Part shown: piece after piece, positions 12,793 through 55,300 of the stretch
How the letters are laid out: each line of letters begins with the position of its first letter
How positions within the stretch are numbered: the stretch's first letter is position 1
Assembly (NCBI GenBank): GCA_035529595.1
Contig: DATKWK010000017.1
Location: 29,384 to 93,383, forward strand
From: Candidatus Bathyarchaeia archaeon
GTDB lineage: Bacteria > Patescibacteriota > Microgenomatia > PFEM01 > JAFGMK01
Reading direction: 5' to 3'
Length of the DNA: 64,000 nt
The notes under the pieces: generated by a model
The model's database searches: none
Told to the model about the DNA's origin: nothing
Seen by the model: only the letters and a program-made list of their open reading frames with translations
Position numbers and translations under genes: made by a program

Positions 12793-12929
12793 ACATCCAT
12801 ATTGTTGTATGCCGTCGTTTTAAACTCCACTAAGTATAACTAAGCATTTGGCCTTGAAAAAGGCTTGATTTCTTCTCTTAGATATAGTATGATTTCCTAG
12901 AAGATTTAAAATAAAAGAGATAAAACGAA

Positions 12930-13577: not shown

Positions 13578-13695
13578 AGAAGAAATAAGTTTCATTTTCC
13601 TTAAAAAAATTATTATCCAAGCTATTAATCTTGAAAATGAAGACTAATAAATATAGAGGTCTGATTAGTGAATTTGCCTGCTAAATAGGAATATT

Positions 13696-14649: not shown

Positions 14650-14983
14650 GGCAAAATTACTATTGCACTTGAGGCTAAAATGTGTTATAAAACATTTAAT
14701 AAGACCTTCGGGTCGACAGAAATAAAAAGAAACAGAAATAAGAGGATAAAGCCATTCGGCGAGGCCTCTTTTTTTATTGGGAGAAAACTAATGAAAGACA
14801 TTGAAGCAAAGCTAAACCAGGCAGCCACCTTATTAGCAGAAGTGATGCTAAGCCAGTTGGGCTTTAATTTCATTCCAAAAGTTAGGATTGAACTTAGTTA
14901 TATTTTCCAGATAAAAATAATCTTGACTGGAAGCCCTTATGAAATTCCGTTTAATTACTACGAGAAACTTAGTTTTACCAGAA

Positions 14984-14989
14984 AGGAGG
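14984..14989 (+). promoter_or_regulatory. Shine-Dalgarno site (AGGAGG) for the serine recombinase gene
   Basis: A perfect AGGAGG sits 6 nt upstream of the ATG at 14996. This supports 14996 as the true start rather than the upstream ATG at 14939. Confidence 0.6.
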
Positions 14990-14995
14990 GATTTA

Positions 14996-16531: not shown

Positions 16532-16577
16532 CCCTTCGCTTAACAGGCGAATGCTCTGCCAATTGAGCTACCGGGGA
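16502..16577 (-). tRNA. tRNA-Asn (anticodon GTT)
   Basis: Cloverleaf read by hand: acceptor TCCCCGG/CCGGGGA, D-stem GCTC/GAGC, anticodon stem TTCGC/GCGAA with loop CTGTTAA, and T-arm ACTGG-TTCGAGT-CCAGT. CCA is encoded. The 3' end overlaps the recombinase ORF. Confidence 0.8.
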
Positions 16578-38907: not shown

Positions 38908-39211
38908 AATGAAAATCGCCAGTTTGCCTACCTATAATGATATTGACGCAGGAAATTTTAAATTACAAGTAAGTTTGGGAGAACTTATCTCCACCATTAT
39001 TCCCTATACCTACGCTCTGGCTGGCTTAGGACTTTTTTTTTATTTGATTATCGGCGGCTTTAAACTTTTAACCAGTGGCGGTGACCCGAAAAAAGCGGCC
39101 GCCGCCCGACAAATACTAACCAACGCAATTTTCGGTTTCCTGATCGTAATCGCCTCTTATTGGGTCTTTCAAATTGTCGGAGTGATCTTTAAGATTGATG
39201 TCTTCTCCTAA
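38906..39211 (+). CDS. VirB2/TrbC-like pilin paralog
   Basis: The ORF-track frame trimmed to the ATG at 38906 (MKIASLPTYND...). It shows the two-helix pattern YTYALAGLGLFFYLIIGGFKLLTSGGDPKKAAAARQILTNAIFGFLIVIASYWVFQIV. Confidence 0.6.
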   Translation, partial: KMKIASLPTYNDIDAGNFKLQVSLGELISTIIPYTYALAGLGLFFYLIIGGFKLLTSGGDPKKAAAARQILTNAIFGFLIVIASYWVFQIVGVIFKIDVFS

Positions 39212-39236: not shown

Positions 39237-39986
39237 TTATTTAGTCTGGTAAACGAAAAACTTACCGCCGCCAAATCTTCTCTCGCGCTTTTGATAAGAA
39301 GCAACTGCCTTATCAAACTCAAACTGGCTAAAATCAGGCCAAAGAACCGGTGAGAAATAAAACTCGGCGTAAACGGACTGCCAGGGCAAGAATCCCGACA
39401 GGCGCATCTCACCGCCGGTTCTGATAATTAGATCGGGATCAGGCAAATCGGCCGTATCAAGATAAGAGGAAAAAAATTCTTCCGTGATCTTACTGACAGG
39501 AATCCGATCTTTAACTAATTTCTTGACTGCCCGGAGAATTTCCGGGCGGCCACCGTAATTTAACGCAAAGGTAACCGTAATTTTATCATTCCTGTGAGTC
39601 TCTTTAATTCCATTTAAAAATTTTTTGATAATATCTTTGGGGAACTTTGAAATATCACCCAAAAAATTAAGCCGGATTCCTTTTTGGTGGAGCTTTTTAA
39701 TCTTGCGGGACAGAATCTGGCGGAAGACTTGCATCAAACCTTTAATTTCCGCTTTGTCCCGTTTCCAGTTTTCCGTCGAAAAGGCCCAAAAAGTAATAAA
39801 CCTGACCCCTAACTCAACCGCCCGATCAATGATCGGTTCGATCGCTTCTTCAGCGGCCACCCGGTGGCCGTCAACCGGACCTAGGCCTCTTTTTGCCGCC
39901 CAGCGCCGGTTACCATCCATAATAATGGCGACATGAACAGGTATCTTACCCTGGTTAAGAGAAATATTTTTCATATAGATACGCAT
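39237..39986 (-). CDS. uppS: Undecaprenyl pyrophosphate synthase (cis-prenyltransferase)
   Basis: HVAIIMDGNRRWA near the N-terminus and the FTFWAFSTENWKR motif. 249 aa. Confidence 0.9.
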   Translation of the reverse strand: MRIYMKNISLNQGKIPVHVAIIMDGNRRWAAKRGLGPVDGHRVAAEEAIEPIIDRAVELGVRFITFWAFSTENWKRDKAEIKGLMQVFRQILSRKIKKLHQKGIRLNFLGDISKFPKDIIKKFLNGIKETHRNDKITVTFALNYGGRPEILRAVKKLVKDRIPVSKITEEFFSSYLDTADLPDPDLIIRTGGEMRLSGFLPWQSVYAEFYFSPVLWPDFSQFEFDKAVASYQKRERRFGGGKFFVYQTK

Positions 39987-40036
39987 TCACCTTTTAACTA
40001 TTTTACCAATTATTTTCAAAAAGACAAAGTAATTTT

Positions 40037-40828
40037 TCAGTTTATTATTGTTCCTTTTACTTCCTGGCCTAAAATCGCTCTTTTCAAGTTTCCCGGAACT
40101 TTCCCATTAACAATTAATGTTTTAATTCCCGATTTAGCTAATTTTAAAGCTGTCTCAACCTTATGCAGCATTCCACCGGTAACATCAATTCCCGCTGAGG
40201 CGCCAAAACACCGTTTTAGCCGACTAAACTGACCGGGCAGAATGGCAGAAATGGTTTGCCCTTTCCGGTTATATACCCCAGCGGTAATTCCTGCATAAAT
40301 CACCTTTTCCACCTTAAATTTATCTTTTAACCTTGTTGCTAAATGATTAAGAATCGTTTCTGTCGACAAAATACTGCAGCCCATTTCCAGATCCAAACCC
40401 ACGTCCCCATAGACAATCGGTAACATTCCAAAGTCCAATGTTCTTAAAAGTGGGCACAAAAAAGAATCTTCAATTTGTCCATTACTGGCAATCATGAAGC
40501 TTGATGGGCTAAAAGAGATAGCATTCTCGCCTTTTTGTAAGAACGCTCTGACAATAATCCGGTTAAGTCTTGCTGCTGCATCCTGGACTTCGGCAATTCC
40601 CCGAAAACTGCTTTTTCCAATCACGCCTTCGTTGGTTTTAAACTTAAGCGCGGGTACATGCGGAAAAGAACCGCCGCCATGACCGATAATCAGTAATTTT
40701 TTTGACCGTTGTTTAGTCTGACAAATCTCCCCGGCAAGACGTTTGATCACCAAACTCTTTTCGGTAAAAGGCTTACTTTTATCAGTAATCAGGCTGCCAC
40801 CAAGTTTAATCAAAATCAATTTATGCAT
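40037..40828 (-). CDS. Isopentenyl phosphate kinase (amino-acid-kinase family)
   Basis: N-terminal LILIKLGGSLITDK and the amino-acid-kinase fold pattern. It sits adjacent to the mevalonate-PP decarboxylase homolog. 263 aa. Confidence 0.7.
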   Translation of the reverse strand: MHKLILIKLGGSLITDKSKPFTEKSLVIKRLAGEICQTKQRSKKLLIIGHGGGSFPHVPALKFKTNEGVIGKSSFRGIAEVQDAAARLNRIIVRAFLQKGENAISFSPSSFMIASNGQIEDSFLCPLLRTLDFGMLPIVYGDVGLDLEMGCSILSTETILNHLATRLKDKFKVEKVIYAGITAGVYNRKGQTISAILPGQFSRLKRCFGASAGIDVTGGMLHKVETALKLAKSGIKTLIVNGKVPGNLKRAILGQEVKGTIIN

Positions 40829-40846
40829 ATCATGACATTATCGAAC

Positions 40847-41857
40847 TCAGAAAATATGATTATGAGCTAATCTCGTTCCCTTGCAAGGTCGATTAATAAT
40901 CGTAAATAATACCTGACTTAACTTTTTCAATCGTCTATTTACTTCCTGGTAATCTTTTTTCTGACAAATTACATGAACATTAGGACCGGCGTCGATCGTA
41001 AAGTAAGCAAATAGTCCTTTTTTGCGCCACTGTCGCAAGACCTGAATAATTTCTATTGTCCCCTGATTCCAGTAAAATATTGGCGGGCGCGAAGTCATGG
41101 CCACTATATGCATCGAAATTGCTTCCTCCTCAATTGCTTCTCCTGATGTCTGAAAATTCTTACTCAAAATTGCCTGTTTTACCCGTTTGATCCGGCTCGG
41201 AAGTTCCTTAAGCCGCGCCCGATAATAAGGACTGATGGCTGCCAATTGGTGGCCGGTGCGGGAAGAAAATTCCTTAATCCCGGTATCAACTACGGCAACG
41301 ATATCGACCAGATCCCACCATTTTTCATCTTTCAACTGGTAGGCATAACAGGTTTCTGAATCCTTCCCTTTCTGCCAATAAGCAAAACCGTCAATAATTG
41401 AACGGCAAGCTGATCCGGAACCGGCCAGACGGGTTAATATCGACAGTTCTTTTTTTGATAAGTTTAAACTCAAGGCAGCAGTTGCCGCCACAGTCAGAGC
41501 CGAGAAAGCCGAACCAGAAGCAGCAATTCCGGCATCGGAAGGAAAGGAATTATGAGAAACAACCTTAACGGGAAAATGGATATTAGCCATTTTTCTTATT
41601 CGGTTAACTTGGGCCAGTACCTTCTCTAAATGGCTACCTTCGGCAGTCTTTTCTTTCTGACCGAAAAACTTAATTTTAACAAGGTCTTTTTCAAAATTAG
41701 GCGAGAATTCAACCGTTGTCGTAGTCAGGCACTTATCCATCGTCATGGAAATACTGTCGTTGTTGGGTAAAACTAAGTCCTTATGCCACCAACCCCAATA
41801 TTTAATAAAGGCGATTGTCGCCGGCGAGATAACTGTCGCTTTGTATTCTTTTCCCAT
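40847..41857 (-). CDS. Diphospho-/phosphomevalonate decarboxylase (GHMP kinase family)
   Basis: N-terminal ATIAFIKYWGWWHKDLVLPNNDSISMTMD resembles the MVD family, and DAGPNVHVI lies near the C-terminus. 336 aa. Confidence 0.75.
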   Translation of the reverse strand: MGKEYKATVISPATIAFIKYWGWWHKDLVLPNNDSISMTMDKCLTTTTVEFSPNFEKDLVKIKFFGQKEKTAEGSHLEKVLAQVNRIRKMANIHFPVKVVSHNSFPSDAGIAASGSAFSALTVAATAALSLNLSKKELSILTRLAGSGSACRSIIDGFAYWQKGKDSETCYAYQLKDEKWWDLVDIVAVVDTGIKEFSSRTGHQLAAISPYYRARLKELPSRIKRVKQAILSKNFQTSGEAIEEEAISMHIVAMTSRPPIFYWNQGTIEIIQVLRQWRKKGLFAYFTIDAGPNVHVICQKKDYQEVNRRLKKLSQVLFTIINRPCKGTRLAHNHIF

Positions 41858-41875
41858 TTAACTTCAAATTAAGTT

Positions 41876-42574
41876 TTAATCCATAGCAACCCAATTCCAA
41901 GAACGAACCTTTCCTAAAAACTCCAAATCTTCCGGCCGTCCAACTTCCTCAGCCGCTGCACACATACCTTCAATTTGATGCAGAATACAAATCGCGGCCG
42001 ATTTTCCGACTAACCTGACACTACTTACTAGGCTGTCAGGATTCGCTTCTTCCCTGCCATTACGACCAGATGGATAGAGAACCGTTATCTCAACCAAACC
42101 CAGTTCATTGGCCCGGCTATCAACAATCGTCTGGTAGACGGCATAAAGCTCGAAGGCATACCGAAGCGGAGTTACTACTCTGCCTCTGGGAATAAACGGC
42201 CGCGATACTGGCACTTTCCGTCCGTTTCCCTCTTTTACTTCATCAAGAAGAAGACGGGGTAATATCCCATTCGGGCTTGATTCCAGACATCCCTGAACCT
42301 GATCACTGCCTCCTGTGATAGACAGATAATCCGAATAACCGAGAGCATGCGCCACTACTTCCCACTCTGGCGTAACTTCGAATTCCAGATCCACAGCCCT
42401 AACTGCCTCTTCGCAAGCTTCCAGTAACCCTGGCGGTGCTGTGACCGGATTCGGCTTAATAGGACGAATCCGCGATCCCGTCTGGTACCTCAGTCGCATA
42501 TCGCCATTCTCTTGATACACCACTGTCATAATCGCTGCCGCAAGGCCAGGTGGCATCGTCATGGCTTCCTTCAT
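41876..42574 (-). CDS. Hypothetical protein (GC-rich) within the isoprenoid gene cluster
   Basis: 232 aa with no recognisable motif. It lies between the decarboxylase and the ECF sigma region. Confidence 0.4.
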   Translation of the reverse strand: MKEAMTMPPGLAAAIMTVVYQENGDMRLRYQTGSRIRPIKPNPVTAPPGLLEACEEAVRAVDLEFEVTPEWEVVAHALGYSDYLSITGGSDQVQGCLESSPNGILPRLLLDEVKEGNGRKVPVSRPFIPRGRVVTPLRYAFELYAVYQTIVDSRANELGLVEITVLYPSGRNGREEANPDSLVSSVRLVGKSAAICILHQIEGMCAAAEEVGRPEDLEFLGKVRSWNWVAMD

Positions 42575-42582
42575 TATTTAAA

Positions 42583-42966
42583 TTACCCCTTAGGGAATTT
42601 ATTAACCCGTCTTAAATACTTGATTACCCAATAAAAGTAATAAATAGTTAAAACGAATAACAAAAAACCAGAAAGCAAAAATAACCTTATACCCAAAGTA
42701 GAAGCCAGCCCCATCGGCCGGACTAAAAGCCAAATTATAAGACTGAAACTGAGAAGCAAAAACCAAAGGTTAAAAGGTAATCCGAAAACTAAAAAAGCTT
42801 GGGAAAGATCTTTTCTGGAAAGAATCTTGGCAGTCGTTATTTCCGGATGAATTATCATTCCTAAAATGTTTTTCAAAAAAAAATAGGCTTCTTTAAAGCC
42901 CACTAATAAGACCAACTCTTTTAAGAAAGAAATCTCTTTTTTAACCTCCCCGGTCGATATTGACAT
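42583..42966 (-). CDS. Hypothetical membrane protein (2-3 TM)
   Basis: 127 aa with hydrophobic helices. It overlaps the upstream sigma-factor gene by 26 nt. Confidence 0.4.
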   Translation of the reverse strand: MSISTGEVKKEISFLKELVLLVGFKEAYFFLKNILGMIIHPEITTAKILSRKDLSQAFLVFGLPFNLWFLLLSFSLIIWLLVRPMGLASTLGIRLFLLSGFLLFVLTIYYFYWVIKYLRRVNKFPKG

Positions 42967-43522
42967 AGATACGAGCGAAGGCTTTCCTCGCCCGGGTCAA
43001 CCTTGATTCGATCGCTTTTTCCGTTTCTCCGAACTTTTGGGCAATTTCCCGAACAGAAAACCCCTGCATATACTTTAGTCGCAATATACGAGCATATCCT
43101 TCGGCCAAAAGCCGTAAAACTTTTAATACCTTTCTCTTTAATTCTTTCTCTTCCAGGTCTGCCTCCGGACCCAGAGCTTTACTGACAAAGATTTCCAAAG
43201 AAGGGAAAAGAGAAAAAACGACCGTCTTAATTTTCTTCTTCCGGTAAAAATCGGCGATCTCATGTTTGGCAATACCGCAAATCCACGTCAGCCAGGAAGA
43301 TCTACCGGAATAAAAAGGCAAGGCTTCAAAAGCAGAAATAAAGGTTTCCTGCAGAATCTCCTCAGCATCCTCCAAACTCTGAACCCGCGATAAAATATAG
43401 TTTAATATCCGCTTGTGATAACGACGATAAATCAATCCCTGTGCTTTCTTATTACCCCGAATTGCTTTTTCGATCATCCTCGACCGAATATTTAATATCT
43501 GAAACTTGAAGCTTTGACTCAT
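42941..43522 (-). CDS. ECF-type RNA polymerase sigma factor (sigma-70 family)
   Basis: Region 2-like ...ILNYILSRVQSLEDAEEILQETFISAF and region 4 HTH REIAQKFGETEKAIESRLTRARKAF. 193 aa. Confidence 0.7.
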   Translation of the reverse strand: MSQSFKFQILNIRSRMIEKAIRGNKKAQGLIYRRYHKRILNYILSRVQSLEDAEEILQETFISAFEALPFYSGRSSWLTWICGIAKHEIADFYRKKKIKTVVFSLFPSLEIFVSKALGPEADLEEKELKRKVLKVLRLLAEGYARILRLKYMQGFSVREIAQKFGETEKAIESRLTRARKAFARIYVNIDRGG

Positions 43523-44583
43523 TTCTCCCTGTTAATCATATAATCCGCAAGGCTCGAATAAATTTCACTCAAATTTGAATCAGAAGTTAATTCCGGAATT
43601 GCTCTTTTACCTTTAATAACTAAATCGCAGGCCAACTTTTGACAATAATCAACCGCTCCTGAATTTCTAATAATTATTCTCACTTTTTCAATTCCTTCTT
43701 CAGTCAAATTTTTGTCTCCTAAAGCTTTTTCAAGTATCTTTTTTTCATTTCCGTTTAATACTTCCAGAGCTTTGGCAACAATCAATGTTTTTTTACCTTC
43801 CCGCAGATCCGAACTAGCTGACTTGCCGGTTATTTTTTCGTCACCAAAAAGCCCAAGAAAATCATCTCTTAATTGAAAGGCAATACCAACCGGAAAACCA
43901 TATTTTTCAGCTGCTTTAATTTTTTCTTGGCTGGCGCTTGCTAAACTAATTCCAACTACAAGAGGCATAATCAAAGTATAATAAGCAGTTTTTAATTTCC
44001 GGATCTTAATTACTTCATTCCAAGCAAAACCAGGAACTAAATCATAGGTAATATCTAAAAATTCACCGAAACCTGTTTTAATCAAGTGATCCGATAAAAG
44101 AGAGATCGCTGTCATTTTGCGCTTGGCCGGAAAATCCGATTCGGAAATTAATCGGTGGCCTAGCCAACAACCAATATCACCCAATACAAAAGCCATTCCA
44201 CCTGACCACCTCTTCGGATCGCTTTTCTTAAAGCGTTCCCGATGGATCTGCTCGTACTGTTTATGAACTGTTGGCCTGCCATAACGCATCAAGTCGTTAT
44301 CAATCCAATCATCATGAATTAACAAAAAAGAGTGTATTATTTGCACGGCAACCGAAGGAGCAATAATCGCTGATCGATTTTTTCCACCGGCTGATTTGTA
44401 TCCGAGACAAACCAGAGCACCCCGAAGCATTTTTCCGCCTTTAGCAAATTTTTCATAAATTCCGACTGCCTCCGCACAAAGAGGTGACACTTTAGCGGCT
44501 TTTCTTTTTTCCTGCTGGAAAAATTTGTCCAAAAAGACGTCCGCTGCTTGCCGGTAACGAGCCAGGTAAGTTTTAATATCCAC
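43519..44583 (-). CDS. Polyprenyl diphosphate synthase (trans-isoprenyl diphosphate synthase, FPP/GGPP-type)
   Basis: The first Asp-rich motif LLIHDDWIDND and the second FQLRDDFLG are present. 354 aa. Confidence 0.85.
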   Translation of the reverse strand: MDIKTYLARYRQAADVFLDKFFQQEKRKAAKVSPLCAEAVGIYEKFAKGGKMLRGALVCLGYKSAGGKNRSAIIAPSVAVQIIHSFLLIHDDWIDNDLMRYGRPTVHKQYEQIHRERFKKSDPKRWSGGMAFVLGDIGCWLGHRLISESDFPAKRKMTAISLLSDHLIKTGFGEFLDITYDLVPGFAWNEVIKIRKLKTAYYTLIMPLVVGISLASASQEKIKAAEKYGFPVGIAFQLRDDFLGLFGDEKITGKSASSDLREGKKTLIVAKALEVLNGNEKKILEKALGDKNLTEEGIEKVRIIIRNSGAVDYCQKLACDLVIKGKRAIPELTSDSNLSEIYSSLADYMINREK

Positions 44584-44690: not shown

Positions 44691-45002
44691 ATGACAAATA
44701 TTGCCTTTGCTTTCGATATCGGAACCGCCTTCAACGCCCCGTTTAATTCAGTGGGCGAATTAATCTCGATCCTTTTACCGAATATTTATATTCTCGCCGG
44801 CGTCCTGCTTTTATTCCTCTTGATCGGGGGCGGATTTGGGGTTATATTGAGTGCAGGCAAAGGAGCCAAAGAAGGGGTTGGTCAAGGAAGCAAGGCGATT
44901 ACGACGGCCATAATCGGTTTCTTAATCATAATCGGCTCTTACTGGATTATCCAAATTATCAGCGTCGTAACCGGTCTGAATATCCTTGATCCCGGTCTAT
45001 AA
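44691..45002 (+). CDS. VirB2/TrbC-like pilin paralog 1
   Basis: 103 aa with two hydrophobic helices separated by a short polar loop: ILAGVLLLFLLIGGGFGVILSAGKGAKEGVGQGSKAITTAIIGFLIIIGSYWIIQII. Confidence 0.65.
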   Translation: MTNIAFAFDIGTAFNAPFNSVGELISILLPNIYILAGVLLLFLLIGGGFGVILSAGKGAKEGVGQGSKAITTAIIGFLIIIGSYWIIQIISVVTGLNILDPGL

Positions 45003-45015
45003 AGCTTATAAAAAA

Positions 45016-45378
45016 ATGGTCAAACACCTGTTAGCCAACGACTCAATCGGCACCGTCACTAATCCTTGGGAAACCCTAAACCCGGCATATACTGGCACCA
45101 GCGGCGAAGGATTGGTCACCTTATTAAACAACATCCTGAAATTAGCTGTTGTTGTCGCCGGCATCTTTTCATTCATTAATCTGATCGTCGCCGGCTACGG
45201 TTTTATGTCGGCCGCCGGTAACCCGGAAAAAATTACTGAAGCCTGGAGCAGAATTTGGCAATCACTGGTTGGTTTACTGATTGTCGCCAGTTCGTTTGTC
45301 CTGGCCGCCCTTTTTGGCTATCTGGTCTTTGGCGATCCGACAGCGATTATTTCACCTAAAATTTACGGACCGTCCTAA
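45016..45378 (+). CDS. VirB2/TrbC-like pilin paralog 2
   Basis: The ORF-track frame (44986..45378) trimmed to the internal ATG at 45016 (MVKHLL...). It contains LKLAVVVAGIFSFINLIVAGYGFMSAAGNPEKITEAWSRIWQSLVGLLIVASSFVLAALFGYLVF. Confidence 0.55.
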   Translation: MVKHLLANDSIGTVTNPWETLNPAYTGTSGEGLVTLLNNILKLAVVVAGIFSFINLIVAGYGFMSAAGNPEKITEAWSRIWQSLVGLLIVASSFVLAALFGYLVFGDPTAIISPKIYGPS

Positions 45379-45379
45379 A

Positions 45380-45745
45380 ATGAACCAAAAATTACTGGCT
45401 ACTTCATTGGGCAGTTTTCAAGGCTTCGGTAAAATCGGTACCGATTTTCTGGCTGACCCGGTTGCTTCTTTAGAGAAAATAATCTCTTTAGTAATCGGTA
45501 TAATGACTATCGGAGCCGGTATCTATTTCATATTTCTGTTAATTATCGCCGCTTACGGATGGATGAGCGCCGGCGGCGATAAACAAAAAATGCAAAAAGC
45601 CCAGGACAGCTTTACTCAGGCTATCATTGGCTTAGTAGTGGTTGTTGCCGCTTATGCTATCGCCTCGGTTGTCGGTTTCATGCTGGGCGTTAACATCTTA
45701 AATCCGTCAGAACTGTTAGGAAATATATGGTCAACCTCAACTTAG
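45380..45745 (+). CDS. VirB2/TrbC-like pilin paralog 3
   Basis: The frame (45281..45745) trimmed to the ATG at 45380 (MNQKLLATSLGSF...). It contains IMTIGAGIYFIFLLIIAAYGWMSAGGDKQKMQKAQDSFTQAIIGLVVVVAAYAIASVV. Confidence 0.6.
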   Translation: MNQKLLATSLGSFQGFGKIGTDFLADPVASLEKIISLVIGIMTIGAGIYFIFLLIIAAYGWMSAGGDKQKMQKAQDSFTQAIIGLVVVVAAYAIASVVGFMLGVNILNPSELLGNIWSTST

Positions 45746-46098
45746 AAAAAATGTTCAAGCCGGCTTACGCGCAAATTACCAACCCGGCTATCGGTGAGGC
45801 CGGAAGCGGTGAAGGAGCTCAGATTTTAAGCCGCCTTATCTCAATAATTCTGAGTGCTCTGCTAATTATGGGTGTAATCTTCTTTATGACCAATTTCATC
45901 CTTGGGGCATACCGGTGGATAAGCGGAGGCCATGACAAAAGCTATATCCAGGAAGCAAGAGACAGGGTTTCCCATGCGATTATCGGCCTGGTGATCCTTT
46001 TCTCCGTTTTTGCTATAATCAGATTGATCGGGGATATCTTTGGTCTTAATTTGATGAAACTTTCAATTCCGACAATTTCTGATGTAGGAGGAATTTGA
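45727..46098 (+). CDS. VirB2/TrbC-like pilin paralog 4
   Basis: It contains LISIILSALLIMGVIFFMTNFILGAYRWISGGHDKSYIQEARDRVSHAIIGLVILFSVFAII. The start may instead be the ATG at 45751. Confidence 0.6.
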   Translation: MVNLNLEKMFKPAYAQITNPAIGEAGSGEGAQILSRLISIILSALLIMGVIFFMTNFILGAYRWISGGHDKSYIQEARDRVSHAIIGLVILFSVFAIIRLIGDIFGLNLMKLSIPTISDVGGI

Positions 46099-46175
46099 AA
46101 TTACCGGTTAGAAGTTATTAAACTATTCCTTAGAACTATATCCTTAATAAGGAAATACTGAAAGGGGGTGAGAAG

Positions 46176-46598
46176 ATGAAAAAAATAGTCAAAACTACAG
46201 TCGCCTTAGGTTTAAGCGTTTTGCCTTTGATAACCTCAGTATCTATGGCTATGGCACAAGACCCTCTTACAGGACCGTTTAATCTTGCCCCTGGTGAAGG
46301 ATGGGAAAATCTATCCAAAATCAGTGTTGCCAGCATGGTAAAAGGACTGCTTTCTTTAGCGATGGTCCTGGCAGCCCTTGTCGCTTTTGGTTTCTTGCTC
46401 TATGGAGGTATTCTTTGGATTACTTCAGGCGGAGACAAAAGCAAGACGGAAACTGCCCGCAATACAATCACCGCTGCCTTAGTCGGATTGGTAATCGTAT
46501 TCGGCAGCTTTGCAATCATCCAATTAGTCCAGATAGCCTTTGGGGTCAGCATTCTTAAGCTTAATTTCGAATCGTTTAAGTTCTATTCAGGTAGTTAA
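46176..46598 (+). CDS. VirB2/TrbC-like pilin paralog 5 (with signal peptide)
   Basis: A strong RBS (AAAGGGGGTGAG) lies upstream. The signal peptide MKKIVKTTVALGLSVLPLITSVSMAMA is followed by LLSLAMVLAALVAFGFLLYGGILWITSGGDKSKTETARNTITAALVGLVIVFGSFAII. Confidence 0.65.
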   Translation: MKKIVKTTVALGLSVLPLITSVSMAMAQDPLTGPFNLAPGEGWENLSKISVASMVKGLLSLAMVLAALVAFGFLLYGGILWITSGGDKSKTETARNTITAALVGLVIVFGSFAIIQLVQIAFGVSILKLNFESFKFYSGS

Positions 46599-46725
46599 CG
46601 TGGAAATATTCAAGTTCCAGACAGCTAAAGCATGGGTACCAAAGCCACAAAGCTACCTTTCATCTCGCAATTAAGAGATGAAGGGTGGCTTTTGGCCATA
46701 GGGAATTAATAAATAGTCTAGAAAA

Positions 46726-47109
46726 ATGAAACAATACAAAGGACTGATTCTAAAACTAATTGTGACTGGTTGGTGTTTGCTGACTTTCTTCCCTTTTTCT
46801 GCAGCTTTAGCTCAGGATTGGTCGACTCCGCCTGACCAGCCGGCAGATTTGAAGGATATTGAGGTCGTCTTTGCCAGAATTATCGGGGTTGCCATTCCTT
46901 TAGCCGGATTCGCCGGCCTGATTATGTTGATTATCGGCGGCTTCCAATATCTTACCGCCGGCGAAGACCCAAAGGCAGTCGAACAAGCATCCAAGTCCCT
47001 TACTTCGGTCTTTACCGGGTTAGTGCTCTTAATCAGCGCCTGGATAATTCTTAAAGCAATCCAAACAATTACCGGGATAAATGTAACCATTTTTAAGATT
47101 TCGCCCTAG
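46726..47109 (+). CDS. VirB2/TrbC-like pilin paralog 6 (with signal peptide)
   Basis: The signal peptide MKQYKGLILKLIVTGWCLLTFFPFSAALA is followed by ARIIGVAIPLAGFAGLIMLIIGGFQYLTAGEDPKAVEQASKSLTSVFTGLVLLISAWIIL. Confidence 0.65.
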   Translation: MKQYKGLILKLIVTGWCLLTFFPFSAALAQDWSTPPDQPADLKDIEVVFARIIGVAIPLAGFAGLIMLIIGGFQYLTAGEDPKAVEQASKSLTSVFTGLVLLISAWIILKAIQTITGINVTIFKISP

Positions 47110-47156: not shown

Positions 47157-50100
47157 ATGGCTAATAAAAAAGTAAAATTATCGAAAAAACTAGGGGGGCT
47201 AGTCGTACTTTGGTTCTTGGCTGGTTTATTGGCAACCAAACCCTGCTTCGCCCAAAATGGCTCGGGAGCCTTATTCGGCTTTAATATTCACCATTTGGCA
47301 AAAATGGAAGAACAGGATATTAGCTCAATCTTACAGAAGCTCTCGACCGATTGTTCCACCAAAATAGTACGGATTTGGGGATACGAGACAGGAATTGACG
47401 CTTATGTCAGCCTGGAAAAAGTACTTCGGAATGCTCCGGAAGATGTTAAATTTATAGTTGCCTTAGAAGACTTTGCCCCAATTATTGAAGATCCGGTAAA
47501 CTGGTATCAGGAGGCTGCCCGGCCCGGATCAAATTACTATCGGCATGTCCAGCGGATGCTGGAACGCTACGGCAAGAATCCTCAGATTCTGGTTTGGGAA
47601 CTGGCTAACGAACCTTCCTGCGGTGGTTATTATGATGCTTGCTTGCCTAATTTTTTAAATTGGGTGGAGAAGATTTCCAATCTGATTGACGGTTATACGG
47701 ACGCCTATATTTCCCCCGGTCTGATCGGAATTCCCCAGTTCTCCGAGTACGATTATGAGCGGATTTCCAACACCGGCAGCATTAATGCTAATTCCTGCCA
47801 TTTTTATAGCAGTTATTCAGATAATGTCGTTAGTTGCCAATGGGCTTTTGATCACAAAGGCCGGGTTGAGTTTATCTATGCCGGTGAGGCCGGCTACGAA
47901 GGCGAGTTCGACTGTTCCGGCGGCGGCTGTACTACTAAACACTGTGAGAACTGCTGTGAACGGCCTATCCTTGAAAAACGAGCCAAAAAAGCGCTTGCCG
48001 ACTATGAAACATTGTCAAAAATGGGTTTTGATGCTTTCTTAATCTGGCAATTTTCACCCTTAGGCAGAGCTTGCGACAACTTTTCGGTCTTTCCGGGCGA
48101 CCCCCTCTGTCCGGGAATTCTAAATATCGCCCCGGACGAATTGACTCTGCCCCCGAATCGAAAAACCGAATGGGCCGATTCGGTTCCGGGAAGGAATATC
48201 CCCTGCCGGCCGCTGGTCGTCTCCCAACAGCAATGGGCTAGTGATACCACCAAAGGCGCCAACTATTTTAACCCATATTTTTTTAATACTGATCCGCTGG
48301 CTGCGGATTCCCTGAGCGGTTTTCCTTTTGATTATTCGCCCTGGCGGCCGTTTCCCGGCGATGCCGGCCGGGCTTTTTACGACACCAAGGGCAATATTAT
48401 CAACCAACCGCACAACGAAGACGACCAGGATGTCTGTTACGATTTGGAAAAGCTGGAAAAAGAAAAGCAGATCACCAGCTACTGCAATCCTTCCCCGCAA
48501 ATCACCGATTACATTCAATGGTTCCCTGACGAATCGGCTTTGGAAAAAACCGTAAGAGTCCTGGGCTATTACCGGCCTTTTTGGACCGACTCGCCGGCTC
48601 CGGAATATAAAACCACCCAGATTCCCTTCTTGGGCAACAGCTTAACCGCCTCACGGGAATACACCGACAACGCCCAAAGGATGTCTCTTTTTGTAAACGA
48701 TTTTCTGCGGGGAACGGTTTACTGGGACCAAACTGAAGTCGAAGAAAGAGACCCGCGGATTGCCCCGGAAAGCGGGCCGATCAGAAAACTGTTGCCTAAA
48801 AACCGGCAGATAAATAATGAGTATATTGATGCTTATATCGGCTGCCGTCTCTTTAAAGACCCTGATCAGTGTGGTTATCCGCTGCTGCATGAAGATGCCA
48901 TCCACGACTATGCTGTTCTGTGGACGACCGGAGACGCCGGTATTATCAAGACCGGCAATTTTACCGATCTGCCTGACCATCGAGAAATAAAAAAGTCTTC
49001 TGCCGTCCCCAATCCATGGCGGTTAAGCGCCTGGTTTTGCGGGTTGCCTGGTATCGCCCGACCACTTAAATATACTAATCTTTGTCCGGAAGACGATTAC
49101 AGCGGCGAAGGCATCTACTGGATCAGAAGTCAGGAAGGTTATCCCTATTTTCCGCTGACCTCCCGAGAAGACGTCCCGGCAGTGGTTGATGTCGGTTTTG
49201 ACGGCGTCTGGGATCCAAACGACCCAAGATTAAGTGAAATACCGCCCGGGAAACCTTTCCCCGTCGGCTATCAGATGAAAATGGAAGATTATTACGCTGT
49301 CATTGAAGACGGCTACTGGGAAGATTCCAATGGCGACGGAATTATGGAATATAATAAATGGGGTGGGATTTACCATATCGACAAGGGCGCCAATTCACCC
49401 GACAGCGATCCACCTCTGCCAATGTACGAATTCCACTTTGTCGATCTGGTTTTTATTCCCCATATAGCTGAAGCCCGCGAACTGGGAGAATGGGCTGGTT
49501 TAACGTTAACCCCCTATACAATGATGAAAAAAGATTTGCCTGATTTTTGGGAAAAAGACCGGAGCGTTCATCAACTTAATCTGGTCACCAGCCGTACCTG
49601 CGAGATCAATGATATTGCCCGCGGCGGACCGGGTGATGCCCTGGCAGTCGACTGGCGGCATAGTTTCCGCTATGTTGATTATCCTACCGACCCCTGGAAC
49701 ATCGGCAATGAAGGTGAAAGACAACTTAGGATACTGCGCGAAGAAAAAGCGATACCAGACCCCCTTCATGACTGGTGGTGTAAAGCCGATCCCAGCGAAT
49801 GGCCGGATCGGGAAACCACGCCGATTGAATCCAATAAAGGCTGGGTAGTGACCAAAATTCCTTATCTGGAACAAGTCGCCAAAAGACTCATCGGCCAAGC
49901 CGGGGTTTTTAAAACCTTAATGCCTTATAGTTTCAACGAGGAAGTCGAAGACTTGATTACAGAAGTTGGCAGAGGCAGCGTCTATCCTTGGGAACTGCCC
50001 GGTTACGGACCGGCCCAACACAGTTACAACAACGGCTTAGCCCCGGAAGGGGTTAAGGAACATTGGGGCTGCTGTAATTATCCAGGTGACAAGTGTGATG

Positions 50101-50387
50101 GTATGGATTATCCCCAGGCAGATTGTCCCGATTACTGCAAATGGAATTCTGAAGCTGGACTTTGTATAGTACCGGGAACTAAAGTAGATTGTATCGCCCC
50201 CTGCAACTGCGATTATTGCAGTAAAGATAACTGCGGACCGGTATCCAAGGACGGATCGGATATCCGCGGTTGGGGAACTGCCAATAATGAAGATGCCCGT
50301 TTCTATTATCCTTATATCGGAACGATTGATATTTTCCGGCAATACTTTATGAATGCCGTTCTCCCCTCTGAGCTATCGACTTTATAA
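47157..50387 (+). CDS. Large secreted protein: N-terminal GH5-family glycoside-hydrolase-like domain plus long extension with a Cys-rich C-terminus
   Basis: Signal peptide MANKK...LLATKPCFA. The GH5 acid/base motif QILVWELANEP is present, with the candidate nucleophile FIYAGEAGYEGE. The C-terminal ~100 aa are Cys-dense (GCCNYPGDKCDG...CNCDYCSKDNCGP). 1076 aa. Confidence 0.65.
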   Translation: MANKKVKLSKKLGGLVVLWFLAGLLATKPCFAQNGSGALFGFNIHHLAKMEEQDISSILQKLSTDCSTKIVRIWGYETGIDAYVSLEKVLRNAPEDVKFIVALEDFAPIIEDPVNWYQEAARPGSNYYRHVQRMLERYGKNPQILVWELANEPSCGGYYDACLPNFLNWVEKISNLIDGYTDAYISPGLIGIPQFSEYDYERISNTGSINANSCHFYSSYSDNVVSCQWAFDHKGRVEFIYAGEAGYEGEFDCSGGGCTTKHCENCCERPILEKRAKKALADYETLSKMGFDAFLIWQFSPLGRACDNFSVFPGDPLCPGILNIAPDELTLPPNRKTEWADSVPGRNIPCRPLVVSQQQWASDTTKGANYFNPYFFNTDPLAADSLSGFPFDYSPWRPFPGDAGRAFYDTKGNIINQPHNEDDQDVCYDLEKLEKEKQITSYCNPSPQITDYIQWFPDESALEKTVRVLGYYRPFWTDSPAPEYKTTQIPFLGNSLTASREYTDNAQRMSLFVNDFLRGTVYWDQTEVEERDPRIAPESGPIRKLLPKNRQINNEYIDAYIGCRLFKDPDQCGYPLLHEDAIHDYAVLWTTGDAGIIKTGNFTDLPDHREIKKSSAVPNPWRLSAWFCGLPGIARPLKYTNLCPEDDYSGEGIYWIRSQEGYPYFPLTSREDVPAVVDVGFDGVWDPNDPRLSEIPPGKPFPVGYQMKMEDYYAVIEDGYWEDSNGDGIMEYNKWGGIYHIDKGANSPDSDPPLPMYEFHFVDLVFIPHIAEARELGEWAGLTLTPYTMMKKDLPDFWEKDRSVHQLNLVTSRTCEINDIARGGPGDALAVDWRHSFRYVDYPTDPWNIGNEGERQLRILREEKAIPDPLHDWWCKADPSEWPDRETTPIESNKGWVVTKIPYLEQVAKRLIGQAGVFKTLMPYSFNEEVEDLITEVGRGSVYPWELPGYGPAQHSYNNGLAPEGVKEHWGCCNYPGDKCDGMDYPQADCPDYCKWNSEAGLCIVPGTKVDCIAPCNCDYCSKDNCGPVSKDGSDIRGWGTANNEDARFYYPYIGTIDIFRQYFMNAVLPSELSTL

Positions 50388-50439: not shown

Positions 50440-52179
50440 ATGAACCTGAAAAGAATCGTTAAAAGCAAAAAAATACTAATCTTTTTACTGGCCTCTTTTT
50501 TGCTAGTCCCCCTTTTCACTAACCTGATTCTGGCTTATGACTCGACACCGGATGAAGATGATGTCCCCTATATTAAGCAGGTCTGGTTACCGGCGGTTAA
50601 ATCTTCGGAAATGAACTTGGAAAGCTTCGTCTACGAAACAATTAAAGCAATTCCCCCGTCTCTTATCAGTATGATTTTAACCAATAAGAGGTGGGCTGAC
50701 AGCTGGATAATCAAAGGAGATGTTACTCCCTATAAAATTCCCAAACCCTCCGAAGCTGGTATCTTGCAGTCTCTTTTGGGCTTTATCACCTATCTCTATG
50801 CCCAACCGCCGGCTTCAGGATTAAACTACATTGCTTACGTCCGCCAGAATCTCGGATTAGCCCCGGCCTATGCTCAAGGCAGTTACGGCTACCAAAGCTT
50901 GTCTCCGGTCATTCCGATGTGGACGGCCTTTCGTAATATAACGTACGCCTTATTTGCCATTTTGCTGGTCGTCGCCGGATTTCTGGTGATGTTCCGAATC
51001 AAGACCGATCCCCGGACGGTAATTACTGTTCAAGCCGCCATTCCTAAAGTAATTATGGCCTTGCTTTTGGTTACTTTTTCCTATGCCATTGCCGGTTTTG
51101 TGATGGACTTAACCTACGTAATTCTATTTGCCGCTCTTGGACTCTTCCGGGGAGCCGGCTTAATCGGCGGTGAAGTCTTGGGGGTAGATGTCATTAAGAA
51201 GGCGCTTACCGAGTGGAACGCGGCCTGGTTTGGTTTCATGGTCCTGATTTTTAGTACCGGTGGGCTTTTTAACGGCATTAACAATATTGTTTCCGGTTTC
51301 CTGACACCGCCGGTCATCCCCAGCATTCCATTAATCAGTGACACCTTAAGATATGTTGTCGGAATTGCTCCTTCAGCCTTGGTTTTGCTGATTATTCTGG
51401 TTGTGATTATCTTTGTCCTTTTTAAGATTTCTTTTCTACTTATTAAAAGCTACATCAGTATCATTCTGGCAGTCCTGATCGCTCCTTTCCAAATTATGCT
51501 AAGTTCTCTGCCGGGAGTAAACGGGTTTGGTTCTTGGCTAAAAAACCTGGTGGCGCATGCGGCAGTTTTCCCGATCGTCGGCATTATGTTCCTGGTGGCG
51601 GCGATTCTCATGGGACCGACAATCGGGATTCAGATTGGTCCGGTGGGCATTTCGTTTGACCCTTTTGACCGGACTAAAAGCGGTTTTAGTACCCCAGTTG
51701 CTCCGCCACCGCTTTTGGGCGACAATCTTTCCAAGCCCGGCTCGATCGAAACTTTAATCGGCCTGGGAATTATCTTTTATATCCCCAGCATCTGCAGCCG
51801 ATTACAGGAAGCGCTCCGACGCCCGCTTGGTCTTGAATCGGCGATTTCGATGGTCGGTTTTCAGAAGTCGTTTGTCGGCGGTGCTCTTTACGGATCAGCC
51901 CAGAAAAAAGCTGGGGATGCTGCTACTACGTTTCTAGGCAGTGTTCCAGGTAGGATCGCTGGTAAGGTCAAAGAAGAAAAAGGTAAGAAAGCTGTTTCTC
52001 CTACAGACCAAAGCCTTGCGCCGTCAACCCAGCAAACAGCTCATCACCCAGGTTGGCAACTACCGAGCCATAGACCGGCATCCGGCGGTGGCGCCCAGTT
52101 AGCTAAAGGTCAACAGGTTAGTCCGGCACCAACCGCGGGCCAGGCTGCAACCCCGAAGAAAACTCCAAGAGTAAGATAG
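50440..52179 (+). CDS. VirB6/TrbL-like polytopic membrane protein with a Pro/Ala/Gln-rich C-terminal tail
   Basis: 579 aa with an N-terminal signal/TM and five or more internal TM helices (ITYALFAILLVVAGFLV, IMALLLVTFSYAIAGFV, LVLLIILVVIIFVLF ...). This matches TrbL/VirB6 topology. The tail is low-complexity. Confidence 0.55.
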   Translation: MNLKRIVKSKKILIFLLASFLLVPLFTNLILAYDSTPDEDDVPYIKQVWLPAVKSSEMNLESFVYETIKAIPPSLISMILTNKRWADSWIIKGDVTPYKIPKPSEAGILQSLLGFITYLYAQPPASGLNYIAYVRQNLGLAPAYAQGSYGYQSLSPVIPMWTAFRNITYALFAILLVVAGFLVMFRIKTDPRTVITVQAAIPKVIMALLLVTFSYAIAGFVMDLTYVILFAALGLFRGAGLIGGEVLGVDVIKKALTEWNAAWFGFMVLIFSTGGLFNGINNIVSGFLTPPVIPSIPLISDTLRYVVGIAPSALVLLIILVVIIFVLFKISFLLIKSYISIILAVLIAPFQIMLSSLPGVNGFGSWLKNLVAHAAVFPIVGIMFLVAAILMGPTIGIQIGPVGISFDPFDRTKSGFSTPVAPPPLLGDNLSKPGSIETLIGLGIIFYIPSICSRLQEALRRPLGLESAISMVGFQKSFVGGALYGSAQKKAGDAATTFLGSVPGRIAGKVKEEKGKKAVSPTDQSLAPSTQQTAHHPGWQLPSHRPASGGGAQLAKGQQVSPAPTAGQAATPKKTPRVR

Positions 52180-52353
52180 GATGTCAAACAAAGACTTTAA
52201 AAAGAAGAAAAAGAAGCTTAAAGTAAGTCCGCAAGTTAAAGCGAGTTTACCCGCTTGGCAAATCTCAACCAAAAAGAAAGAAGACAACCTCAGGTTATGG
52301 AAAAAAACTCCCTACATTAGATAGAAGACTTTTTCTAATTCAAATATTAAAAC

Positions 52354-55300
52354 TTACCATCTTGGCGGTTTTTCCGGGCCAAATATTTCCCTAAATAATT
52401 GATGTCCGATACTGAAACCTAACTCCTTAGCAAACTGACTTAACCGGAAAGCATGGCCTGGCGTAATTAAACCGTCTGCTAACAGTGCGGGCACTAACGG
52501 TGCTCGTTCCCGAGTTAAGCCAAAGGTTGTCCTCAACTCCATCGTTTCAACTATCTCTGAAGCTGGCACTAACGCTTTTGAAAACGGCTGAGCCATGGCA
52601 TCCTTCCGCCACGGTGAAACCTGAACTAGGACATTCGCCGTCAGGATAGCTACATGATCCTGATAGGCTTGAATGTTCGCTTCATTGGATAATCCCCGCG
52701 TCCAAGCGCAAACGTCCATCAAATTTCGCAGAGCGCCGACCGCGCCATCAACTACTGCTACCGGATCAGTTAATTTCCTCGGATCAATTTGGCCGGTAGC
52801 CATTTCCATAAAAGTCATTGCCTGTATCCATAAGAAGTTCATATATAAACCATTATAAAATGTCTCCGATAACTGTCCAAACGGTATTGTCTTCCAACTG
52901 CCCCCGACAGTGAAATGTTCCAGAGGGATATCCGGCATCCCTTCTAGGCCGATTTTATCAATCGACTGCTGATGCTCCCAAGCCTCCTCTTCCGAACCAG
53001 TTAAGGCTAATCCCCGTTCTTTTTTACTCCTTGCTTGAGCTACTAAAGCTCTTAAGTCCCCATCCTCGTTCCATCTTTGCCTAATGTCATCTATTCTGCT
53101 TTTGATTTCAAGAATCATAGCCTCATCTGGAGCTAGTGGTTGTCCGCTGACCTTTTTAGCAGTAATATCCCGAAGAGCCGTATCTAATTTTGAGCCCTGA
53201 ATAGGACAAGTTGTCAGCACGTCAGCCACAATCTCGCCGATCAAGGGGTCTTTAGGATCGACGGTTAAAGGATAGCGGCGATCTACAAGTTCACCAGTGA
53301 CTCCAATTTCCAATAAACGTAAAAGCTTTTCTTGAGTAAGTCCTTTAGGTGTTCTTGACCGTTGTAGGGCTTTTTCTCTGGCCGCTTTTCCTGCCCGCTG
53401 ATAAAGCCTTTTAAACTGAGCAATATCGGCAAGTTCTTTCAAGGCCGGCTCACCTTGTTTTTGATAGCTTTTTAACAAAGCCGAAGCTCCTCGCCCTCTG
53501 ATATTCCAATTTGCCAGTAACGGCCTGACCGCATCCGCTCCTGCACGATGGTATATCGCTCTGAGTCTGCTTTCGGATTCCTTAATGCCAACTTTTTCAG
53601 CAACTACTGTAACTCTAGCCCGGTTATACGCTTTTATTAAATCACGTGCCTGACTCTCATGTACTCCCCCCGGTTTTTTTCCGCCCGCCATCAATCTGGC
53701 AACTCCAATTTCTCCCCCCAGCCTATATGCTTCGATCGCTTTTTCTGTATTTAAATGCCAATTTCTTAGTCTAATTAAATTCGCCACAGCCTGCTGGCCT
53801 GCCTGATCGCACTTCTCTGTCAATTCAGCCGGAAGAAAGAAAATACAAGCAGGATTTTTCACCTTAGCATCAACCTTAGCATTACTGACGAAGCGATATG
53901 TGGCTGAAATAAATATCTTATCGAGATAGGCACCAATATGCCAGGATCTATGGACATCTTCAACCGCGAACCGAAAAAGAGCCACCCTGGCTTTTCTGGC
54001 CATCTCAACCGCAAAAGGACTTCTGACGACTTGACCGATGCCTTCGACGAACCTATTCATTAACGAGGCCGACGTGTAGGCATCATCCAAAGACGGCATA
54101 TCATGCGGTAAACGATCTAGCATTTTGTCAACTAAGTTGCGTCTATTTGCCCGTTCTTCATCGCTTATACCCGGCTCATCCGGTTGTACGGCTCCCTCTA
54201 AGGCGACCCGGTATGCCTGGTTAGCCGCGCCGAGCCCTTCCTGGGCAAAAGAAGACCAACTGATAGATCTCATTGCCGGTGAAGCCAAAACATCCCAAAT
54301 GTGGTAGGCGCCCTCAAAAGGCTGGCTATACTCCGGGTTTGCGTAAACTTCGCCATCTTCGTCCGTTTTTGCAATTTCTGCTATAAACAGCTCATCCCAA
54401 AAGGCCATCATGGTTAAATGTTCCGGTTCGATTGTCGTACATCGAATTCTTGGAACAGATTCACCATAACCAAGTAATAAACCAACCTTTTCTCCGGCAG
54501 TACCGCTGCCCAAAGCGATTCTCATCTCCAAATAACGGTCGGTAAAGGCGATTACCGCTCGAGATAGCATTCTTACTCTTTCTTTAAAGGATCGCTCAAT
54601 TCCCATAATCGATTTCCATTCACCAACTTCGTCAGGAATCATAGCCATCCATTCTTGGATGTCCTGGACTAATGTATTATTTACCTCAAAATAACTAGGC
54701 TGTTCGGTTCTAATTAAAGTATCCAGACGGCGATAAAACCCATCCAACCAGTAATTAGGACCTTTTTCTTTCGTTTCTGTCGATTTAGCCGCTTCATTTT
54801 CTTTCTTTATCTGATCTTTTAAAATGCCGCATAAAGCTTCCATCACCCGGTGCTGACGGGTGTGTTCAAGGATATCTTTATCCAATCTTTCAATCTCATG
54901 TCTGTTACCCGCTGCTTGTACCTTGGCATAGCTAATAAATCGCCTCATTTGATCCCGCCAAGCCCGTTCCCGATCCATCAGATCCTCGATCTTGTCAAGA
55001 GTAAGATCTCCGTCACGACGCAACTCAACCGTCTCGATCACTAAATCAATCGGCGGCACTAACATTCCTGTTCCTGGAACTCTCTCTCTTGGTCCAAAAC
55101 CCTCATTCAAATCAGTCAGAGTCAAGACCTCAACATCGGCTTCAGGAATAAAAACCTGCCAGACCAAACAATTCAGGTTTTTTTCTAAAGCGGCGACTGC
55201 CTCTATAGTCCTCTCAGGGAATCTTTTAACCCGCTCTTTAAGACTCCTGATATCGCGAAGCCAGGCTGCCAATGAGGCCGCACTGACCCGATCAACTCCT

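Follow-up and report, generated by a model that had tools for sequence, protein, structure and literature searches.

Eight divergent type IV secretion system pilin-family genes in a conserved order on a Microgenomatia chromosome

INTRODUCTION

Why should a bacterial chromosome carry eight divergent copies of one small two-helix protein beside a type IV secretion system (T4SS)? This question is raised by a stretch of 64,000 nucleotides (hereafter the window; positions 29,384 to 93,383 of contig DATKWK010000017.1, assembly GCA_035529595.1), in which six such genes (i.e. B1 to B6) lie in tandem and two more (i.e. A1 and A2) stand upstream. The original prediction for this locus, made from the DNA letters alone, had read the proteins as VirB2/TrbC-like pilins whose exposed loop had diversified for antigenic or host-range variation or, alternatively, as the subunits of a heteropolymeric filament. 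Arrays of this kind have been described for the Patescibacteria. A search of 3,035 genomes with PF04956 and PF18895 recovered 441 VirB2-like arrays of 2–11 genes in 383 assemblies, with a mean identity of ~25% and a maximum of 54%, and its authors suggested, by analogy with the VirB2 paralogues of Bartonella and Anaplasma, that array diversity may help adaptation to different hosts (Quinonero-Coronel et al. 2025, Microbial Genomics; PMC12102498). In Ca. Southlakia epibionticum ML1, a series of six pilins encoded within the T4SS cluster is essential (Wang et al. 2023; PMC10633639), as is the T4SS itself (PMC10633639; PMC12857230). The comparison reported here sharpens the question of what the pilin arrays, essential in the one genetically tractable species, build. 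The eight genes of the window encode distinct members of Pfam family PF18895 and are likely to be an ancient, ordered subunit set of a chromosomal, relaxase-less T4SS of the Microgenomatia, one that probably builds a heteromeric pilus or conduit.

RESULTS AND DISCUSSION

Eight members of one pilin family

The architecture of the eight proteins was examined by Kyte-Doolittle hydropathy and by alignment. Each contains two hydrophobic segments of ~30 residues on either side of a polar loop of 13 residues (15 in B1), bearing out for all eight the predicted design of two helices and a loop rich in G, S, D and K. Helices and loop fit within ~70 residues, as in PF18895 proteins, and an AlphaFold2 (AF2) model of B6 is a hairpin with helices at residues 43–77 and 82–116 and a confidence score (pLDDT) of ~88 or higher over approximately residues 51–110. 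The sequences have diverged as substantially as had been proposed, with pairwise identities of 16–39% over the global alignment and of at most 44% when aligned locally by BLAST, whilst all 28 pairs were detected by BLASTP. Searched against the window's 616 six-frame segments, a hidden Markov model (HMM) built from the eight matched no others (next best E = 0.12), and hence revealed no ninth copy there.

Six of the proteins (i.e. B2, B6, B3, A2, B5 and B4) score above the gathering cut-off of 26.6 bits for PF18895 (T4SS_pilin), the Pfam family entitled 'Type IV secretion system pilin', and in this sense the pilin assignment was upheld. A1 (21.4 bits) and B1 fall below the cut-off yet are placed in the family because of their paralogue matches, A1 being found by the paralogue HMM at E = 6.5e-29 and B1 aligning with A2 at 44% identity (BLASTP E = 4e-21). 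Database homologues all carry PF18895 and all come from Patescibacteria or Microgenomates. The signal peptide described as optional was, when judged by reading the sequences, canonical (i.e. a Sec signal peptide with an A-x-A site) in A1, B5 and B6 only; the other five proteins have short polar N-termini. A2, B1–B4 and their orthologues start with a loosely conserved M-x-x-x-hydrophobic-hydrophobic-A/G followed by a polar segment, which may represent a leader of unconventional type.

Positional orthologues in a fixed order

The window was compared with five long contigs (i.e. L002, L003, L004, L012 and L013). These share a common layout in which SpoIID (minus strand), A1 and A2, uppS and further minus-strand genes, B1 to B6 and a large secreted protein are followed by a ~550-aa polytopic protein and, further on, by PrgI, a TraC-like protein and VirB4. 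Reciprocal best BLAST hits were positional in L002, L003, L004 and L013, the one exception being that A2 was not called as a gene in L002; in L012, which is more distant, the genes are largely collinear and the reciprocal best hits mostly positional. Positional orthologues were 34–66% identical as compared to 31–44% for the best within-genome paralogue. By type, identities were 36–62% for A1 (L002, L003, L004 and L013), 46–51% for A2, 47–62% for B1, 38–66% for B2, 37–59% for B3 and 34–45% for B4 (L002, L003 and L004), the last falling to ~30–36% in L012 and L013, which are more distant. Against L002 and L003 as a calibration of divergence, the housekeeping neighbours are 52–71% and the pilin orthologues 34–66% identical; a 1076-aa protein encoded after the array reaches 32% and a 1122-aa gene product beyond it exhibits no detectable similarity.

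A wider survey, in which GTDB species-representative genomes were scanned with an alignment of six B5 orthologues, yielded 80 loci. The family HMM found a modal number of eight pilin open reading frames (ORFs) per locus, on one strand and often contiguous. Type-specific HMMs recovered the exact order A1 A2 B1 B2 B3 B4 B5 B6 in 30 of 81 loci, and nearly all others were collinear subsets or truncations, or carried a duplicated B5. For the 30 genomes with the full order, mean orthologue identity was 44–63% depending on type (62% for the A1 module), as compared to 27% for within-genome paralogues, and seven of the eight types were strictly monophyletic in a neighbour-joining tree of 240 sequences. 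Because the order is fixed and orthologues are far closer to each other than paralogues are, the copies are read as subunits with separate conserved roles. Positional orthologues in a class-wide fixed order were not found in the published array papers, and neither were the conserved loop and the VirB6-like gene after the array that are described below.

These observations run counter to the proposal of antigenic or host-range variation. Phase variation through homopolymers had been put forward as something to look for at the array, and a tandem-repeat scan found no repeats, homopolymer tracts or invertible elements able to drive it. The data are best accommodated by the other possibility raised at the outset, a putative heteropolymeric filament.

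A conserved loop between variable tails

Segment-by-segment identity among the eight paralogues was highest in the loop (30%) and helix 2 (32%) and lowest in the N-terminal (20%) and C-terminal (19%) tails, which range from 8 to 49 and from 4 to 18 residues, respectively. Across 119 family members, conservation peaks from the end of helix 1 via the loop into helix 2, with the motif L-x-x-G-G-x-x-W-I-T-S-G-G-D-K...A...I-T-x-A-L-x-G-L, of which G-G-x-x-W-I-T-S-G-G-D-K is near-invariant; the WITSGGDK segment is unchanged in all six B5 orthologues compared, and the 15-residue loop of B1 (SAGKGxKEG) recurs in its L002, L003 and L004 orthologues. Diversification of an exposed loop, as first suggested, is thus not what is seen: the loop is of fixed length and, with helix 2, among the best conserved segments.

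Cysteine-rich extensions are attached to several members, N-terminally in A1 of the window, L003, L004 and L013 and in A2 of L003, and C-terminally in A1 and B4 of L002 and in B3 of L004. As disulfide-rich domains are extracytoplasmic and the extensions occur at either end, both termini are predicted to lie outside and the loop in the cytoplasm. The loop is therefore probably not exposed and is to be sought on the cytoplasmic or lumenal side. In a VirB2-type polymer, as solved for the F- and T-pilus, the corresponding loop would face the lumen. Taken together, types that are ancient and ordered, a loop that is conserved and outer tails that vary speak for an assembly of several components and against a repertoire of variants.

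Two special types, B5 and A1

B5 is the most conserved type (mean identity of 63% over the 30 genomes) and the one that is duplicated in many genomes and lineages, and it dominates the family in the database, the consensus being B5-like. A canonical signal peptide is present in all six genomes inspected. A strong Shine-Dalgarno sequence (GAAAGGGGGTGAGAAG, 46160–46175) precedes the B5 start codon (ATG), B5 being the only array gene with one in the window and its close relatives, and the site is kept in L002, L003, L004 and L012. A promoter and terminator scan also suggests a promoter-like site at 46095–46124 in the 77-nt spacer before B5. On account of its conservation, signal peptide, Shine-Dalgarno site and duplication, B5 is probably the major subunit.

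A1 contains 22 cysteines, all of them within a 167-aa extension (residues ~29–195; 38173–38673) between the signal peptide and the pilin module. The extension consists of three repeats of ~40 aa, two of which end in C-x-C-x-C and the middle one in C-x-x-C-x-C, and it matched no Pfam family. A1 could plausibly be displayed as an adhesin or form part of a tip.

Gene boundaries and packing

All eight genes are present on the plus strand, as predicted (Table 1). Start codons were picked from upstream context and checked against Joint Genome Institute (JGI) gene calls on the source contig (Ga0307380_10000013, 385 kb, metagenome 3300031539), whose protein sizes match the chosen starts (103, 120, 121, 123, 140 and 127 aa for B1 to B6; 272 and 100 aa for A1 and A2). 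Starts were thereby corrected to ATG 45016 for B2 (not TTG 44986), ATG 45380 for B3 (not TTG 45281) and 38909 for A2 (not 38873). The size range of 100–140 aa given originally holds for seven genes and fails for A1. Similarly, most of the overlapping starts and stops that had been reported are artefacts of taking the longest ORF; B3/B4 is the sole overlapping pair (19 nt). Spacers in the array are otherwise 1–13 nt (1 nt for A1/A2 and B2/B3) up to B5 and B6, which are preceded by 77 and 127 nt, respectively. The tight packing of co-directional genes agrees with the operon that had been suggested, and the genes would be co-expressed from one or two operons.

Table 1. Pilin-family genes, interrupting cassette and downstream genes of the window (aa, amino acids)
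Feature	Position	Strand	Length (aa)	Characteristics
A1	38089..38907	+	272	Sec signal peptide; ~167-aa Cys extension; C-terminal two-helix pilin module
A2	38909..39211	+	100	No canonical signal peptide; PF18895 32.9 bits; JGI call of 100 aa
Cassette	39237..44583	-		uppS, isopentenyl-phosphate-kinase-like, mevalonate-diphosphate-decarboxylase-like, unknown gene, small transmembrane protein, extracytoplasmic function (ECF)-type sigma factor, polyprenyl synthase
B1	44691..45002	+	103	15-residue loop (SAGKGxKEG); PF18895 10.5 bits
B2	45016..45378	+	120	PF18895 39.9 bits; JGI gene call
B3	45380..45745	+	121	PF18895 34.2 bits; JGI gene call
B4	45727..46098	+	123	PF18895 26.9 bits; N-terminus resembles a degenerate signal peptide (..PAYAQ)
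B5	46176..46598	+	140	Sec signal peptide (..AMAQ|D); PF18895 28.2 bits
B6	46726..47109	+	127	Sec signal peptide (..ALAQ|D); PF18895 39.2 bits; TrbC 16.3 bits (sub-threshold)
Secreted protein	47157..50387	+	1076	Signal peptide; weak N-terminal GH42 match (24.4 bits); Cys-rich C-terminus
VirB6-like polytopic protein	50440..52179	+	579	Model closest in fold to DotA and TrwI/VirB6
Lysine-rich ORF	52181..52324	+	47	Small ORF at the equivalent place in relatives (gene calls in L001, L002, L003)
Large protein	52354..55722	-	1122	No signal peptide; large minus-strand gene of relatives at this place without detectable similarity
PrgI/VirB3-like	56701..57723	+	340	PF12666 31.4 bits; C-terminal CarboxypepD_reg-like domain
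TrsD/TraC-like	57720..58736	+	338	60% identity over 137 aa to the L004 PF26593 TraC-like gene
VirB4-type ATPase	58733..60709	+	658	PF19044 TraG P-loop 97 bits; AAA_10
Polytopic protein	60760..63474	+	904	3' of VirB4; C-terminal soluble domain with HECGH (HExxH, metalloprotease-like)

The T4SS neighbourhood

The genes for PrgI, the TrsD-like protein and VirB4 lie 9.6–13.6 kb downstream of the array and, with the VirB6-like fold encoded closer to it, they provide the T4SS setting expected of the predicted pilins. The large ORFs of the window were found to include no relaxase or coupling protein. The joining of PrgI to a CarboxypepD_reg-like domain is likewise seen in L004 and L013. The L013 VirB4 gene (GCA_964530385.1, 17622–20369, plus strand) contains an intein with a LAGLIDADG homing endonuclease. 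The 904-aa protein encoded 3' of VirB4 had no significant Pfam match and no BLAST homologue in the 10-kb flanks of the 80 loci, and a DOT1-like methyltransferase comes between the 1122-aa gene and PrgI.

Immediately after the array stand the 1076-aa secreted protein and the 579-aa polytopic protein. The latter had no Pfam match at E <= 1 and, with a 31-sequence profile, no sequence match in the PDB. Its AF2 model (mean pLDDT 69.6, membrane core >90) matches solved VirB6-family structures in fold. All of its 77 homologues are annotated as 'hypothetical', and it is found 3' of the array in 48 of the 80 loci. Few VirB6 homologues have been noted in Microgenomatia, 'suggesting extreme sequence divergence' (PMC12102498), and the modelled fold makes the 579-aa protein a good candidate for the divergent Microgenomatia VirB6. 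In R388, VirB6 and VirB5 make a stalk that is the proposed site of pilus assembly (PMC12857230); by analogy, array, large secreted protein and VirB6-like gene would fit a pilus-biogenesis module. The position of the 1076-aa gene is kept in L002, L003, L004, L012 and L013 with no match to the L004 protein, and its product may be an adhesin, a tip protein or a partner that degrades the wall. Both fast-evolving genes (i.e. 1076 and 1122 aa) may encode host-specific adhesins or effectors.

The 5.4-kb cassette that splits a once-contiguous array into 2 + 6 genes, with contents identified from gene calls and Pfam, interrupts the system and does not belong to it. In many relatives (L015 and L017 among them) the eight genes run on without a break, and uppS alone stands between A2 and B1 in L013. 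Some isoprenoid and uppS genes recur at the A2–B1 gap in relatives.

Comparison with known pilins and published arrays

The classical pilins VirB2, TrbC and TraA (PF04956; T-pilus and F-pilus) resemble the array proteins in having precursors of ~100–140 aa, two hydrophobic helices, a short polar loop with basic residues and genes that adjoin VirB3, VirB4 and VirB6 homologues, and would share with them a topology with termini outside and a loop that is inside or lumen-facing. The differences are that most array copies lack a long cleaved leader, that the loop is ~7 residues longer than in MPF_T VirB2, that the host is monoderm and that eight co-conserved types take the place of one major pilin. 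A hairpin as predicted for these proteins does not discriminate for or against classical pilins. The VirB2/TrbC pattern claimed for the array accordingly holds as regards the PF18895 pilin family and the T4SS context; classical PF04956 membership does not, the highest score being 16.3 bits. The safe statement is that the proteins are PF18895 members, VirB2-like by architecture and genetic context, whose homology to VirB2 is unproven.

Outside the Patescibacteria, the best curated match was the Mbov_0395/MMCAP2_0565 pilin-like protein of Mycoplasma integrative and conjugative elements (ICEs), which likewise belongs to a wall-less or monoderm system of MPF_FATA type. This family (NCBIfam NF045849) matched seven of the eight paralogues over nearly the full 80-position model (E of 5e-7 to 2e-3; 18–29 bits), the best scores (B2, 29.2 bits; B6, 28.8 bits) lying below the curated cut-off of 40 bits. 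It differs in being a single gene per ICE and part of a conjugative system. The match suggests that, against the premise of PMC12102498, monoderm MPF_FATA systems are not wholly devoid of pilin-like proteins. A PDB sequence search with the eight-paralogue profile returned no conjugative pilin, and its top match, to the transmembrane segment of a viral attachment glycoprotein (E = 5e-4), was judged spurious. The Pam pilus of candidate phyla radiation (CPR) bacteria was also considered and is not the same thing, as it belongs to an immunoglobulin (Ig)-like, donor-strand-exchange family (bioRxiv 10.64898/2026.03.03.709456).

The locus is an instance of a published phenomenon and not a new kind of system. 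Patescibacterial VirB2-like arrays (PMC12102498; S. epibionticum ML1; the 'Sec secreted array' of TM7x) also consist of PF18895 genes in tandem with interruptions allowed, are ~25% identical within an array, are linked to a VirB4/TrsD/PrgI core, have no relaxase or coupling protein nearby and are enriched in Microgenomatia. The window offers the same combination, with six and two tandem genes, identities of 16–44% and all three core components, and differs by its eight types and the 2 + 6 split by a housekeeping cassette. Bartonella and Anaplasma T4SS loci similarly contain several divergent tandem VirB2 genes. The role ascribed to those paralogues is variation of antigens or of the host cell (cited in PMC12102498), whereas the copies described here are old, ordered and individually conserved, pointing to a division of labour.

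A model of assembly and its alternatives

In the assembly that we favour, each protein would be inserted in the cytoplasmic membrane with its termini outside and the conserved G-G-D-K/P loop at the cytoplasmic face. The VirB4 ATPase, with PrgI/VirB3 and TrsD, would extract the subunits, which would be stacked on the VirB6-like platform encoded just 3' of the array. The product would be a short heteromeric pilus or conduit with B5 as the abundant major subunit and the other types as minor, initiating or specialised subunits, A1 presenting its disulfide-rich domain outside, and the structure would serve host-cell contact or exchange rather than conjugation. A more detailed version, offered as a speculation that may well prove wrong, is a pilus or conduit of fixed stoichiometry on the VirB6-like platform in which B5 forms the shaft, A2, B1–B4 and B6 are initiating, adaptor or tip subunits and A1 is a pilin-anchored, disulfide-rich adhesin. 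If so, it would be the first multi-pilin pilus of conjugative type and a physical link by which Microgenomatia exploit their hosts. The assembly model predicts that all types are co-expressed at defined ratios with B5 in excess, that the types are individually non-redundant and that the subunits interact with the VirB6-like protein.

Several results weigh against an assembled pilus or conduit, or against the generality of the evidence for it. A filament of this protein family is not known to have been observed. No array protein reached the PF04956 (TrbC/VirB2) cut-off of 27.9 bits, the best scores being those of B6 (16.3 bits, E = 0.012) and B3 (13.0 bits). When 119 family members were compared by hhalign with a small alignment of seven annotated VirB2/TrbC proteins, all from plasmid records and of MPF_T only, helix 1, loop and helix 2 were in register at a non-significant probability of 3% (P = 0.015). 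Classical propilins differ from five of the array proteins, in which a canonical signal peptide is missing. VirB4 was within 10 kb of the array in just nine of 40 full loci. A Shine-Dalgarno core of at least 5 nt precedes 23% of B5 genes over the 80 loci as compared to 0–16% for other types. The survey is also biased towards genomes with a B5-like gene, in that loci were recruited via B5 and the type HMMs were built from five related genomes.

Some of these points would suit proteins that stay in the membrane as translocon subunits or anchors displaying variable extracellular tails or domains, the name 'pilin' then being nominal and no filament being formed. Homology to pilus-forming VirB2 is unproven, monoderm T4SSs are generally without pili (PMC12102498; PMC10633639), signal peptides are missing from most copies, A1-type members resemble anchored surface proteins and the thin filaments of CPR cells solved so far are those of the unrelated Pam system. 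We nevertheless consider this unlikely, given that eight co-conserved hairpin paralogues beside a VirB6-like platform and VirB4 are what a multi-subunit polymer would be expected to show, that the near-invariant loop motif suggests a common partner (i.e. lipid, ATPase or neighbouring subunit) and that the recurring sub-threshold matches are to pilin families (i.e. TrbC and NF045849, E down to 5e-7). There is even less reason to regard the divergent copies as alternative major pilins for antigenic or host-range variation, as also proposed in PMC12102498. The low identity within the array is in line with the published mean of 25%, the tails, which would lie on the surface of a VirB2-like pilus, are the most variable in both length and sequence, and lineage-specific B5 duplication occurs in many genomes; the order is, however, fixed over 80 species-level genomes with monophyletic types, orthologues are much closer than paralogues, no repeats, homopolymers or invertible elements were found, co-expression would be expected from one or two operons and the S. 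epibionticum array is reported as essential, which together make a repertoire decidedly improbable. That the genes encode unrelated small membrane proteins, such as holins or bacteriocin immunity proteins, lying near a T4SS by chance is scarcely credible. An assignment of that sort would have overturned the pilin reading, and searches of Pfam, NCBIfam and PHROGs gave no significant match to holin or immunity families (best holin E = 0.21, in NCBIfam; none at E <= 0.1 in PHROGs) whilst PF18895 was significant. Many genomes show the synteny with PrgI, TrsD, VirB4 and the VirB6-like gene, and the context is that of chromosomal housekeeping genes and not a prophage.

Source of the contig and other features of the window

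The window is part of a bacterial chromosome, as it encodes a tmRNA, seven tRNAs, RpoD, DnaG primase, EF-P, a class II aminoacyl-tRNA synthetase and SpoIID. The NCBI label 'Candidatus Bathyarchaeia archaeon' (locus tags VMW41_00800–00830) clashes with the tmRNA, RpoD, DnaG primase, EF-P and SpoIID, and this archaeal label is likely to be a taxonomic mislabel. By synteny and identity, the closest relatives are metagenome-assembled genomes (MAGs) named Pacebacteria/Paceibacterota, Woesebacteria, Shapirobacteria, Collierbacteria or Microgenomates, and the contig is assigned to class Microgenomatia of the Patescibacteria because its nearest MAGs carry those labels. Many array-bearing MAGs are labelled Gammaproteobacteria, Pseudomonadales, Clostridia or TM6. 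At the start of the window, a low-GC stretch (109–16577, 35–39%) contains GmrSD, an SMC/AAA-PHP protein, the full hsdS, hsdM and hsdR set of a type I restriction-modification system and a large serine recombinase beside tRNA-Asn, and is probably an integrated defence island.

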